Shown here piece by piece: positions 9,876 to 40,220 of a DNA stretch of 59,330 bases. Source of the stretch: a virus. Lineage: Duplodnaviria; Caudoviricetes. The stretch spans positions 1 to 59,330 of the IMG/VR virus record IMGVR_UViG_3300011336_000352. The stretch is one strand, 5' to 3'. Within the stretch, counting starts at the first letter, position 1, and every line of letters starts with the position of its first letter. Both the position numbers and the translations under genes were made by a program. Below the pieces are notes generated by a model that saw nothing but the letters and a program-made list of their open reading frames with translations, ran no database searches and was not told the DNA's origin.

Positions 9876-10638
9876 TTTGGTTCCTCAAATCGCTCTCGTC
9901 CTCTTTGGGCGATCCAAAGTAACTTAGCGACTTCCAAACATACAGCGAGGGCTGATTTTCCTTCGTAACCGTCAGGGTAGTGCTTATACCACTCGTTTCG
10001 GCAAGCTTGCCACATAGCCCGTTCATTTGAATATTGGCCAATAATGCGCTCAGCATTTCTAGGTCCGAGGCCGTATATTCCTGGGATGTTGTCCACACTG
10101 TCTCCAGTGAGAACTTGTTTGTAGAAGTTTCTTGTTGCTTCTGTTCCATTTAGTGTGTACCTTTTATCCTTTACCCAATTGTAGTGTTCTCCGGGAATCA
10201 TGTCTAGGTCTTTATCAATAGACACTATGCACACTGGTTCCCCCGGATTAGTAGTGGCTCGTATTCCAATTGCATCGTCAGCTTCCATTCCATCTACTAG
10301 TACTGCTCCGTACTTCCTCACTATGTACTCTCTTATCTCCTTGTAATACACGGGCTTATTGAAGGGACTTCTGTTTCCCTTGTACGGCTTTACTGTTGCC
10401 TCTTCTAAGCGCCAGTTGCCAGTACCGCTTAGGTAGAACTCTAGGGAATCGAACTTCCCTGCAATGCTATCAACAACAGTATCTATGTTGTGTAGGGCAT
10501 TAGCTAGAGGCTCTACTTCCTTTATGTGCTCTATGTCCCCATCTTCTCTTTGTATCTTGTGTTTCTTCTCAGCAGCAAAGCCGCATCTGTATACAAGAAT
10601 ATCGGCTAGGAGTCTACGATACCAACAGTTTGGCTCAT
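9872..10638 (-). CDS. 5'-3' exonuclease (T7 gp6 / FEN-like); reading frame interrupted after codon 10 by a 5-nt insert containing TAG (10604-10608)
   Basis: YKGNR, MEADDAIG, SIDKDL, LTGDSVDNIPG motifs; ATG 10638 gives MSQTVGIVDS-stop and DILVYRCGF resumes 5 nt later. Confidence 0.88.
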
Positions 10639-11192
10639 AGACTAGTATCATCCTTTAAAGCCCTGTCTAGCTCTTTGTGCTTAGTTATATAGGTTGCTGC
10701 TTTAATTAAAAGTTGGGGGCTATCCATGAAGTGCCCTAGTCCTCTATTACAATTGGTACATAAAAATTCTCGGATCTTTCCAGTACTGTGATCATGATCT
10801 AGATGCGCAAAATGCTTGTGCTTTTTTAGATATATGCCACAAATACCACATACAAATTTTTGATTTTCTAGAAGTTCATTATATTTTTCCAAAGAAATAT
10901 TGAATCTACTTTTTATATAGTTAGCCTTTTTAGCTAGTCTATACTCTTCTGAAGATGCATGTTTTCGTTTGTGATGTTCTCTAGACTTTCTATTTGCACA
11001 GTCTTTACAATAATATGCTAAGCCTTTAGCACGTATATTCTTTGGGTCTTTATGAAATTCTGAGTGTGGTTTTATTTTCTCACAAAGACTGCATCTTTTT
11101 TCTGTATCAGTTACATAAGTATATGCAGTATATTTATTTGCACCTACTCTCTTGCGTCTAGATTTTATGTCCGAATCTACGATACCAATCAT
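10635..11192 (-). CDS. Endonuclease VII-family putative free-standing homing endonuclease, fused to the first nine codons of the exonuclease
   Basis: CSLC..CKDC Zn motif, CGIC, HLDHDHSTGKIREFLCTNCNRGLG; AT-rich relative to flanks; starts MIGIVDSDI. Confidence 0.88.
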   Translation of the reverse strand: MIGIVDSDIKSRRKRVGANKYTAYTYVTDTEKRCSLCEKIKPHSEFHKDPKNIRAKGLAYYCKDCANRKSREHHKRKHASSEEYRLAKKANYIKSRFNISLEKYNELLENQKFVCGICGIYLKKHKHFAHLDHDHSTGKIREFLCTNCNRGLGHFMDSPQLLIKAATYITKHKELDRALKDDTSL

Positions 11193-11731
11193 TCATCTTC
11201 TTCTTTTATTCCCATCCTCTCTAAACAAGCATCGTCCTCTTCACACTCGTACGGCTCTAAGTCCAGATCCTTGGGGACATTATCGTACGACTTCCGCTTG
11301 TAGATCTTGGCTACTATTGCTAGGCTCTTTCTGTTGTAGTCGTTCCAGCTAGCTCCGTATGATTCAACTAGGGCCCTCTCGCTTCGTAGAGCTATCTGGT
11401 GCGCTAGTTGATAGGGCATATTGTACGGTTCATCCTCTAGAGACTTCTCTACCATCTCGTGGAAGGCAAAGGTCTTGTGTAAAGGAATACTAACCTGAGC
11501 AGTACTTAGACCATCAGTAGCTACCATTAGTTCCTCAGGAACTTCCTTGTCGATGTAAATAGTTAGGCCGTCTTCAGAGTATCCCGCTGCGTACGGAATA
11601 TCGTGAGAGGAGTCTATCTTTACCTCTTCCTCTAGGAACTCATCGGCCATGTCTAGCTCTTCATCTGAGAATAGCCAATCTCCTTTCTTCGGGGTTAGTA
11701 CAACCTTAGGTCTGTTTATTCCACTGCTCAT
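11189..11731 (-). CDS. Acidic hypothetical protein with a possible metal-binding HExxE...H motif
   Basis: HDIPYAAGYS, FHEMVEKSL, YQLAHQIA; 180 aa. Confidence 0.6.
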   Translation of the reverse strand: MSSGINRPKVVLTPKKGDWLFSDEELDMADEFLEEEVKIDSSHDIPYAAGYSEDGLTIYIDKEVPEELMVATDGLSTAQVSIPLHKTFAFHEMVEKSLEDEPYNMPYQLAHQIALRSERALVESYGASWNDYNRKSLAIVAKIYKRKSYDNVPKDLDLEPYECEEDDACLERMGIKEEDE

Positions 11732-15061: not shown

Positions 15062-15137
15062 TGGAGAGACCTGAGAGGCTCGAACTCTCGACCCCCAACT
15101 TGGAAGGATGGTGCTCTACCAACTGAGCTAAGGTCTC
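15062..15137 (-). tRNA. tRNA-Gly (TCC)
   Basis: Cloverleaf GAGACCT/AGGTCTC, D-arm GCTC/GAGC, loop CT-TCC-AA, TTCGA T-loop, U73 discriminator, encoded CCA. Confidence 0.9.
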
Positions 15138-30197: not shown

Positions 30198-30274
30198 TGG
30201 TGCCCCCGGTTGGATTTGAACCAACGATCAAGCGATTATGAGTCGCCTGCATTAGACCGCTATGCTACAGGGGC
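30198..30274 (-). tRNA. tRNA with CAT anticodon, Ile2-type (lysidine-modified, reads ATA)
   Basis: GCCCCTG/CGGGGGC acceptor, encoded CCA; anticodon arm GGCGA-CTCATAA-TCGCT as in enterobacterial tRNA-Ile2; lacks initiator features (three G-C pairs, unpaired 1:72). Confidence 0.88.
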
Positions 30275-38883: not shown

Positions 38884-39331
38884 TGATGGAGAAGAGCACT
38901 GGGCTATAAAGATGGTAAATCTTTACAAGTCTGGTGCTTCTGATGTTGAGGTCTGTAAGGATTTAGGCATTTCTTATAATGACTTTAACGACAGGAAGAA
39001 GCAAGATTCTATCTTCTCTAGTATTGTGGATTATGGTCGCTTAGCTGCTAAAGCTTGGTGGATGGAACTAGGGCGCAAAGGAGCCACTGGCGAAAAGAAC
39101 TTCAATTACAATGCGTGGTACGCAGTAATGAAGAATCGCTTTGGTTGGTCTGATCGTAGCGAGATTGTAGAAGGCAGCGAAAAGAATATAGATCAGCAGT
39201 CTAAAGACGAGTTGATTTCTCAACTAGCTGCTCGCAAAGATTCTCTAGCCAAGCTGCTTAATACTAGCAATGTAATACTAGCTACGACTAACCTACTAGA
39301 AACAGATGACAGCGAACTTGAGCCTACATGA
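38702..39331 (+). CDS. terS: Terminase small subunit (start uncertain)
   Basis: KPGRPKG, helix-turn-helix-like GASDVEVCKDLGIS, AWWMELGR...MKNRFGWSDR; precedes terL. Confidence 0.8.
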   Translation: MNQLTTTSQTEPELTHPLMLESPSTSESPQPPQIAEPQLIVEKRKPGRPKGTTKKDTLSTNDGEEHWAIKMVNLYKSGASDVEVCKDLGISYNDFNDRKKQDSIFSSIVDYGRLAAKAWWMELGRKGATGEKNFNYNAWYAVMKNRFGWSDRSEIVEGSEKNIDQQSKDELISQLAARKDSLAKLLNTSNVILATTNLLETDDSELEPT

Positions 39332-40220
39332 AGCAATTGAGAAACTAAATCTCAAGGAACTAAAGTCTAGTATTCCTCAAGAAGGTTACACTGTAAGGCA
39401 AAGAGCTGCGCTAGAAGCAAAGCTAAAAGAGTTAGTCGGGGCTAAGACTACAAGAGTAAAAGAGCCGAGTGTAGATGATTTAAGAAAGCTCATTGAAATA
39501 CACGATGAGCTTTTAAAGCGAGAGGATACCTCTGGGTTCCACAAGTGGTTTAAGCCGGGAACTCCGTACGGGATAGATCGCTTATCTAAGCACAAGGCAA
39601 TGTTTGACGCAACTAAGGACTATAGAGAAGTCCTTATGTTGGGCGGAAACCGTACAGGCAAGACCAGAGGGGGAGCTACTTTCATAGCAGCTCTAGCTAC
39701 TGGACAATATCCTGAGTGGTGGGAAGGAGTTAGATTCGATCATCCCACTTCTAACTGGGCAGCAGGTAAGACTGGGCAAACTACCCGAGACACAGTTCAA
39801 GAAGCTCTCATGGGGCCAATTGGAGCTTGGGGAACTGGAGCCTTACCTTTAGATTGTATAGGAAGAACTACAGCTAGACAGGGCATTCCTAATGCCTTGG
39901 ATACTGTAGAAGTAAAGCACATAAGCGGAGGAACATCCACTATAGGATTTAAATCCTTCGACCAGAAAGCTTCGAGCTTTTATGGTACAGCAAAGCACGG
40001 GGTATGGCTGGATGAGCCATGCCCTGATCTAGTTTATAATGAGTGCTTGATTCGTACCATGACTACCAATGGAAGATTGCTTCACACAGTTACCCCCAAA
40101 GAGGGCCTTACTAGATTACTAGCAGAGTTCTTAAGCACCTGCGATCTGTTAGCAGGAGCAGAGAGAATCAAGGGCCTAGAGGCTATGATGAAGCTAGTAG
40201 AGATGAATGAGAATGATTGA
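39306..40220 (+). CDS. terL: Terminase large subunit, N-terminal ATPase part (P22-like)
   Basis: Walker A GGNRTGKT; YPEWWEG; Walker B VWLDEP; coupling motif TVTP. Confidence 0.9.
   Translation: MTANLSLHEAIEKLNLKELKSSIPQEGYTVRQRAALEAKLKELVGAKTTRVKEPSVDDLRKLIEIHDELLKREDTSGFHKWFKPGTPYGIDRLSKHKAMFDATKDYREVLMLGGNRTGKTRGGATFIAALATGQYPEWWEGVRFDHPTSNWAAGKTGQTTRDTVQEALMGPIGAWGTGALPLDCIGRTTARQGIPNALDTVEVKHISGGTSTIGFKSFDQKASSFYGTAKHGVWLDEPCPDLVYNECLIRTMTTNGRLLHTVTPKEGLTRLLAEFLSTCDLLAGAERIKGLEAMMKLVEMNEND

Follow-up and report, generated by a model that had tools for sequence, protein, structure and literature searches.

A mobile endonuclease cassette in a phage exonuclease gene with a candidate five-nucleotide stop-hop

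Ribosomal bypassing has so far been described from gene 60 of phage T4 and its homologues and from yeast mitochondria. The T4 gene 60 system was reportedly set out by Huang (1988) and Bonocora (2011), the sources that a recent preprint and a review name for it. Here we describe a locus in the IMG/VR virus record IMGVR_UViG_3300011336_000352 (59,330 nucleotides, nt; the whole stretch was analyzed and is called the window below), a 59-kb phage genome record that is 94% complete. A mobile cassette carrying an Endonuclease VII (EndoVII)-type homing endonuclease gene and a 5-nt gap that begins with a stop codon interrupts the flap endonuclease (FEN; 5'-3' exonuclease) gene of this phage. All coordinates of the locus refer to the minus strand. 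The best reading of the window, and in our judgement a likely one, is a programmed stop-hop, in which ribosomes would pass over the gap (TAGCC) to a codon 5 nt downstream (+5). We lean, with less assurance, towards a broader reading: that natural programmed stop-hops, the smallest bypass known (5 nt, with the landing codon overlapping the stop), occur in a family of homing-endonuclease cassettes that has spread through aquatic and wastewater phages, with the D-x-D catalytic motif of the flap endonuclease as target, a hairpin that ends at the take-off codon as stimulator, the gap as a means of self-immunity, and different nuclease families sharing the arrangement.

The nearest counterpart is the gene 39/mobA/gene 60 element of T4, which has a 50-nt bypass (20 nt in one Aeromonas clade) according to the main text of the preprint (10.1101/2022.08.31.505936). 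That text also describes how the nuclease can be lost while the gap is kept, how it can be exchanged, and how the filled allele is protected from self-cleavage. As far as the element is covered there, it resembles our locus in that a homing endonuclease and a stop-initiated coding gap form one cassette at a metal-binding motif of an essential-looking replication gene, in that replacement codons for the host gene come with the cassette, and in that the end of the insert lies at the landing codon or close to it. The gap outlives decay of the endonuclease (here in loci L191 and L192), nucleases are exchanged (here EndoVII-type for HNH_3-type, in L193 and L196), and filled and empty alleles coexist. 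Set against gene 60 as portrayed in the same text, the gap here is 5 nt long, with the stop and the landing codon overlapping; the gap contains no take-off stem-loop, a hairpin lying instead 5' of the take-off codon; and the nascent chain has 7-22 residues, making a tunnel signal unlikely. The host gene is a flap endonuclease rather than a topoisomerase and is not split into two working subunits, the nuclease family differs, and the endonuclease takes over the start codon of the host gene.

Stop-hops are presented in the relevant portions of the review (Nucleic Acids Research 2016; PMC5009743) as a result of synthetic constructs, and of natural hopping over an in-frame stop it is said there that 'no occurrences are known'. 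Those portions also state that shorter natural counterparts of gene 60 have long been presumed and that two-of-three pairing occurs in mitochondrial bypassing. For the synthetic stop-hops in E. coli the review cites Weiss et al. (1987), whose title lists +5 and +6 events. In the synthetic hops, as would be the case here, peptidyl-tRNA lets go of a codon that precedes a stop and pairs anew with a matching one immediately beyond the stop. As the review portrays them, those hops were engineered and inefficient, whereas the present arrangement is natural, occurs at 18 loci, and is accompanied by a hairpin and a mobile element. The exact 9-nt geometry of the stop-hops described there is found in only one of our loci (L112), the other 17 having the overlapping +5 form.

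Two further systems are related in part. F-CphI of cyanophage S-PM2, in the sections of PMC6083498 that concern it, shares the PF02945 domain and is a free-standing phage endonuclease beside a conserved target gene; none of the relatives in cultured phages is reported with a coding gap. In the nrdA/mobE arrangement of phage Aeh1, as outlined in the preprint (10.1101/2022.08.31.505936), an endonuclease likewise sits inside a coding sequence whose function is kept without an intron or intein; there two polypeptides assemble, whereas here a piece of about nine codons would be replaced by a cassette copy and joined to the remainder by the ribosome. No natural short stop-hop and no bypass cassette targeting an exonuclease was found in the literature consulted, which included the review portions and the main text of the preprint without its supplements.

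If the reading is true, the locus offers a minimal natural system for ribosome release and re-pairing in 18 sequence variants, among them matched and two-of-three landings, a shifted site, a +6 form and variants of the hairpin. It would also mean that selfish endonucleases have solved the problem of self-cleavage by recoding more than once, and that gene callers give the exonuclease a false N-terminus (as in protein cluster P0001) or a truncated one.

The cassette and its empty allele

The two ends of the interrupted region both encode the beginning of the exonuclease. The start at 11192 reads ATG ATT GGT ATC GTA GAT TCG GAC ATA (MIGIVDSDI) and now opens the endonuclease open reading frame (ORF), while the frame from ATG 10638 reads ATG AGC CAA ACT GTT GGT ATC GTA GAC TCC TAG, followed by CC and then by GAT ATT CTT GTA TAC. 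The window has exactly two copies of a 13-nt repeat, TTGGTATCGTAGA, one at 11176-11188 and the other at 10613-10625, each on the minus strand, and 0 of 100 shuffles matched this. The coordinates, the repeat, TAGCC and the overlapping ATGs given in the initial annotation were all correct when the sequence was re-read. Judged by its homologues, MIGIVDSDI is the native N-terminus of the exonuclease: the 20 aligned full-length homologues mostly begin MIG[ILV].D.D..YRCGFAAEKK, with a few other openings such as MTVGLID and MKKTLLVD. The nine codons are foreign to the endonuclease, since a 50% identical endonuclease (L006) begins directly M-ANKYTAYTY without this stub. The endonuclease stretch has a G+C content of 0.30-0.33 against about 0.45 in the flanks. 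Its product scores 76.2 bits with PF02945 (Endonuclease_7; cut-off 23.6) and 78.6 bits in a second scan, is the only EndoVII-type protein encoded in the record, and has 415 relatives at E <= 1e-10.

Alleles of the locus were surveyed in Logan contigs from four runs of three studies, which were compared over 10300-11300; the runs with the locus are riverine, sludge and wastewater metagenomes. Runs X11 and X13 (recorded as 'DNA?') each have one contig that spans the endonuclease and TAGCC without indels, and each also has a contig that joins 10601 to 11170 and skips 568 nt. The joined form is present as well in X15, an RNA library that possibly contains DNA. It reads ATG ATT GGT ATC GTA GAT TCG GAT ATT CTT, that is, an uninterrupted exonuclease MIGIVDSDILVY without the endonuclease and without the 5 nt. 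This is the empty site, and filled and empty alleles coexist in the same runs. The endonuclease and TAGCC are present or absent together, which shows them to be one mobile cassette, as the initial annotation had proposed; the locus thus displays the presence/absence polymorphism with precise boundaries by which homing endonuclease cassettes are recognized. The 568 nt hold the endonuclease, a Shine-Dalgarno (SD) sequence and new start, the duplicated N-terminal codons and TAGCC.

Both an assembly error in the 5 nt and removal of the gap or cassette from the RNA, by a group I intron or other splicing, would dispense with recoding. A formal splice with 5' U and 3' G (..GAU U / .. CCUAG / CCGAU..) would also yield MIGIVDSDILVY, and the joined form does occur in one RNA library (X15). 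It occurs in the DNA runs too, however, where its sequence has the TCG GAT of the empty allele rather than what the formal splice would yield; with the TCG of the upstream copy in DNA runs, it is not a product of splicing. No Rfam intron match reached gathering score in the window or E <= 10 within 10300-11500, and the endonuclease ORF occupies nearly all of the 568 nt. As to assembly, the junction GACTCCTAGCCGATATT is identical in two more IMG/VR contigs from other samples (L002, L003) and free of indels in Logan contigs of two further studies (X11 record 2, X13 record 7). The assembly indel against which the initial annotation advised a check is therefore ruled out by the same 5 nt in five independent assemblies, and splicing by the empty-allele sequence of the joined form and the want of an Rfam match; we regard these explanations as exceedingly improbable.

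The cassette lies in h-D-x-D, the first catalytic motif of the phage's only FEN gene. The endonuclease has taken over the original start and first nine codons of the exonuclease, and the 3' end of the cassette supplies a new SD sequence, an ATG and ten replacement codons. In the mechanism that we propose, ribosomes that finish the endonuclease would re-start at the overlapping ATG, decode the ten codons and stall there, with UCC occupied by peptidyl-tRNA-Ser and the A site by UAG. This tRNA would then unpair, the mRNA would slip by 5 nt, and re-pairing with GCC would involve two of three bases. Decoding would resume at GAU to give ..VDS-DILVY.., with the spacing of D-x-D restored. Without the 5 nt, the right-hand junction would be a rebuilt endonuclease target with two synonymous differences from the empty site; as in T4 mobA/gene 60, by analogy, the insert would break the target without adding residues to the protein. 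We infer from this analogy that the gap is a self-immunity device of the endonuclease. The features of the locus are listed in Table 1.

Table 1. Coordinates of features at the interrupted exonuclease locus of the window
Feature	Coordinates	Strand	Details
Upstream ORF, 180 amino acids (aa)	11189..11731	-	No Pfam or PHROG match; TGA overlaps the original exonuclease ATG 11192
Original exonuclease 5' end (MIGIVDSDI)	11166..11192	-	Now the first nine codons of the endonuclease ORF
EndoVII-motif homing endonuclease ORF, 185 aa, AT-rich	10635..11192	-	PF02945, E 1.8e-21
Mobile cassette, 568 nt	10602..11169 (boundaries 2 nt ambiguous, up to 10604..11171)	-	Joint 10601->11170 'skips 568', both=2, seen in X11, X13 and X15 contigs
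Cassette-borne new exonuclease start, short ORF MSQTVGIVDS	10609..10638	-	ATG overlaps the endonuclease TGA; proposed take-off codon TCC at 10611-10609
5-nt gap, TAG+CC	10604..10608	-	Proposed landing codon GCC at 10606-10604
Exonuclease body, FEN / 5'-3' exonuclease, 243 aa	9872..10603	-	From the proposed resume codon GAT (10603-10601) to the stop
RNA hairpin, 14 bp, one bulge	10611..10643	-	Predicted fold -15.6 kcal/mol, z -3.8

Two further candidate explanations were tried and rejected. A suppressor tRNA or reassignment of the stop codon was set aside on the tRNA genes of the record, which are only Gly(UCC) and Met(CAU), at 15062-15137 and 30198-30274, with no suppressor tRNA; moreover, TAG read as sense would leave the 5-nt insert unmended, so that reassignment would be no remedy. 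Repair by recombination between the two 13-nt repeats was ruled out on sequence because its product would keep TAGCC.

A contig from a second RNA library (X17 record 18; 192 nt, depth 2) joins 10638-10729 to 11166-11253, skipping 436 nt of the endonuclease (10729->11166), and 8 loose letters precede 10638. The contig may be chimeric or may come from a variant that has lost the inside of the endonuclease.

Take-off and landing codons across eighteen loci

A scan of IMG/VR with the junction pattern returned 22 stretches, 14 of them on known contigs. Among the eight new ones, four had the exonuclease downstream and were real, and four were chance matches. The pooled set comprises 18 distinct viral hop loci, the window included. 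At all 18, the short ORF ends h-h-D-x directly before the stop, and the stop directly follows the take-off codon (TCC TAG in the window). In the 15 inserts read directly at endonuclease loci, a few bases separate this stop from the codon for the second Asp, which lies in another frame. In the 17 loci with five inserted nt the stop is always TAG, the sole stop whose last base can begin a G-initial codon, and its G with the two inserted bases forms the codon 5 nt downstream of the take-off codon. This candidate landing codon is identical to its take-off counterpart in 10 loci (GGT/GGT in 8, GCT/GCT in 2), synonymous with it in four (GCC/GCT, GAT/GAC, GGT/GGC, GGT/GGA) and shares two of three bases in four (TCC/GCC, the window; TCC/GCT; TCT/GCT; GCT/GTT). 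The middle base is the same in 17 of the 18 codon pairs and has three states (G, C, A). By the overlapping +5 geometry, a Ser take-off codon is limited to a two-of-three match. The resume codon restores D-x-D at every locus, if ribosomes land where we infer.

Two loci depart from the common layout. At L108 (1996-2046) the break comes behind the second Asp, one codon further on than elsewhere (GAT TAG AC ATC), with a short ORF of 22 codons, and the rule is still obeyed. At L112 the insert is 6 nt and in frame, GGT TGA GGC, which is the classical 9-nt stop-hop layout, although this locus could also be served by readthrough. A search for a second +6 example with the pattern D-G-stop-G-D gave four stretches, one of them the L112 contig and three of them chance matches with TGG (Trp).

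The first Asp of the motif binds metal in the FEN family. The h-D-x-D motif has one residue between the Asp residues in 20/20 homologues and in 80/80 endonuclease-free viral loci (100/100). In a model of an intact, 72% identical homologue (predicted local distance difference test score, pLDDT, 94.9), residues 2-6 form strand 1 of the FEN fold, and the model matches E. coli ExoIX (template modelling score, TM, 0.67), T5 FEN and T4 RNase H; the short ORF alone encodes strand 1 in the window. A sequence search of the PDB returned FEN family members only, with alignments that stop short of the N-terminal motif.

A -1 shift was the alternative offered in the initial annotation. A frameshift at the same site, whether -1 (..VDS-LA-DILVY..) or +2 (..VDS-A-DILVY..), would reach the exonuclease frame in the 17 five-nt loci, and an A-site stop is known to promote shifts according to the portions of the review used here (PMC5009743). 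No slippery heptamer is present, however, and re-pairing after -1 or +2 fits only 0-1 of three bases in the GGT, GCT and GAT loci, against three of three at +5. The shift products would hold three or two residues between the Asp residues in place of the one seen throughout the relatives, a -1 shift would break the frame at the single locus with an in-frame 6-nt insert (L112), and a shift gives no cause for the inserted bases to track the preceding codon. We consider frameshifting quite unlikely, and the -1 form is disfavoured by its three residues between the Asp residues and by leaving L112 unserved.

Initiation in the exonuclease's own frame, at ATG 10651 or by re-initiation after the gap, would require no recoding if the enzyme were active without its first Asp. 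The ORF finder does start the exonuclease at ATG 10651, reading MILVYEPNCWYRRLLADILVY.., the resulting 259-aa call is in the collection as cluster P0001, and an ATG, GTG or TTG of some kind stands upstream in the exonuclease frame at 10 of the 18 loci. Such a start is impossible in the other eight, which have no ATG, GTG or TTG in this frame between the previous stop and the resume codon; independent initiation is therefore no general answer. At ATG 10651 itself, AAAGG abuts the ATG with zero spacing. Two substitutions in L003 are synonymous in the frame of the short ORF but change W>R and Y>H in the frame of ATG 10651. The product would be without strand 1 and the near-invariant first Asp, and its Pfam match begins only at profile position 61, whereas intact homologues match from position 4. 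We judge this explanation very unlikely.

A third alternative holds that the exonuclease is simply broken, the cassette being a parasite of a dispensable gene whose filled allele makes no active enzyme. The empty allele is deeper than the filled one in both DNA runs (8.5 vs 3.8; 18.2 vs 5.5), although contig depths are a weak measure, and as the cassette is mobile, intact downstream frames could mean recent invasion. Against this, the 94%-complete record has no FEN gene besides this one, whose product matches the exonuclease profile over positions 7-248 of 249 (E 7.9e-124), with PF02739 and PF01367 matches below cut-off (26.7 of 34.3; 30.9 of 40). Complete exonuclease frames of 223-298 aa, with pairwise identities of 27-64% (median 38%) and 29 near-invariant columns, are found at 18/18 loci, including two with a decayed endonuclease (L191, L192), which implies long residence. 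A dead gene would also leave unexplained the h-h-D-x end of the short ORF, the tracking of codons and the hairpin at take-off. We hold a broken gene to be unlikely. The claim in the initial annotation that the gap is skipped, with TCC for take-off and GCC for landing, thus finds its support in comparison: 18 loci, tracked codons, intact frames, and eight of the 18 loci lacking a start.

Distribution of the insert among endonuclease relatives

With a profile made from 22 endonucleases, 80 viral endonuclease loci were fetched. Among the 26 closest loci (L099-L124), 25 have the exonuclease directly downstream, the exception being L105, where the contig end is reached; so do L156/L157, and 0 of the 52 other fetched loci. 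A stop-containing insert is present at the motif in 17 of the 25 and absent from eight. The insert was read directly in 15 of the 17 and taken from identical or near-identical matches in L099 and L121; junctions were read in 22 loci, 15 with the insert and seven uninterrupted. Four loci were not read separately: L099 is the contig of L003, and L117, L119 and L121 have the same matches as L116, L118 and L120. In endonuclease-free viral relatives the insert occurs in 0/80, all 80 having an uninterrupted in-frame h-D-x-D. The co-occurrence of insert and endonuclease that the initial annotation expected therefore stands in part: it is seen in the 17 loci and in the 80 endonuclease-free relatives, but the eight relatives that carry the endonuclease beside an uninterrupted exonuclease are of the kind which that annotation had named as speaking against it.

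A remnant of the resident exonuclease start (M..L[IV]D.D) lies upstream of most of the related endonucleases, either fused in frame, as in the window, or as a stub. Endonuclease relatives in the database also open with the stub, for example P0126 (MIGIVDADI..), P0128 (MIALIDGD..) and P0196 (MKALIDSD..). The position of these stubs indicates that insertion takes place immediately behind the D-x-D codons and that the elements supply the gene with a new 5' end. At L102, L111, L115, L116/117, L118/119 and L122 an exonuclease stub is present upstream of the endonuclease and the gap is absent.

Other nucleases are found at the same position. In L193 (25-552) and L196 (1457-1984) an HNH_3 nuclease (PF13392) is fused to the exonuclease stub, ahead of a shared 3' module that has the ..KEGRxL tail, the overlapping ATGA, the hairpin and the TAG gap as in the EndoVII cassettes. 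The presence of HNH_3 before the shared 3' module indicates that the nuclease module was swapped. L191 (8791-9190) has a fragmented endonuclease, with HNH_3 pieces in two frames, beside an intact hop and exonuclease, and in L192 (508-633) only the last ~40 codons of an EndoVII-type endonuclease are left, the hop and exonuclease being intact.

A metagenome scan with a two-endonuclease profile gave distant matches only (L013-L018). In INPHARED the locus had no relative at the DNA level, the only matches being two of 77 nt in Erwinia jumbo phages; the hop module had no match and the exonuclease was at most 40% identical to any entry. Endonuclease relatives in that collection are less than 41% identical and lie at other genes, such as polymerase and terminase.

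The hairpin before the take-off codon and the weight of the reading

The 5' arm of the predicted hairpin, AGTCTATGA (10643-10635), contains the endonuclease stop and the exonuclease start, and the last base of the 3' arm, TCGTAGACT (10619-10611), is the first of the take-off TCC. In single-sequence folds, 7 or more of the 8 nt that precede the take-off codon form a 3' arm at 18/18 hop loci. At a looser cut of 6/8, only three of the seven endonuclease loci without an insert and 33 of the 78 loci without an endonuclease have such an arm. The mean fold energy is -14.2 kcal/mol for 14 hop loci, against -7.0 for insert-free endonuclease loci and -8.7 for endonuclease-free loci. The sequences of the arms differ while their position is kept: in L103, CATCGATG pairs with itself, and in L108, CCGTCAACC pairs with GGTTGACGG, this last hairpin tracking the shifted take-off site and not the start codon. 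In the C-terminal tail of the endonuclease (..QKEG..L), the residue before L varies (C, G or S) and the nucleotides GTCTATGA are kept. RNAalifold, run on 18 unanchored stretches of 45 nt, gave six consensus pairs, of which two showed double changes, and the covariation term was weak (-0.31), MAFFT having misaligned the loci with other loop lengths; for this reason the claim of a hairpin rests on the single-sequence folds and their controls. From its position, the hairpin probably aids the forward slip of the mRNA by refolding behind the ribosome. A comparable 5' structure is discussed in the gene 60 literature and is poorly conserved there, according to the main text of the preprint (10.1101/2022.08.31.505936). 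In L101-L124, the last ~30 nt of the endonuclease encode the SD sequence of the exonuclease (AAGGAGG) and the 5' arm of the hairpin.

Several observations weigh against a programmed stop-hop. The eight uninterrupted loci among the 25 mean that the insert is not needed to carry such an endonuclease, and the insert-free loci are interleaved with the hop loci on the endonuclease tree, L115 standing beside L109 (96/92) and L118 and L122 beside L120 and L123 (96/96), which suggests repeated loss or gain of the insert. Given the mobility of the cassette and the conservation of its 3' module as DNA, the 18 loci are not 18 independent events, and the codon covariation may come down to perhaps two or three double changes. 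This module is far better conserved than the host genes, which indicates horizontal spread and makes intact frames weaker evidence; such frames are also expected after recent invasion, whether or not the hop works. L196 (GCT/GTT) violates the middle-base rule. In the window itself, a landing from UCC to GCC would pair two of three bases, so that its efficiency may be low, and the nascent chain has 10 residues against the 46-residue, signal-bearing chain of gene 60. The RNA-library contigs (X15, X17) do not span the gap in the filled allele and have no bearing on expression. As for the hairpin, its control loci have shorter N-termini and are an imperfect match, and since it buries the start codon it may equally serve translational coupling.

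Elsewhere in the record are genes for DNA polymerase, ribonucleotide reductase, a T7-type endonuclease I and head proteins, and the only terminase match in PHROGs, a weak one, lies at 39306-40220.

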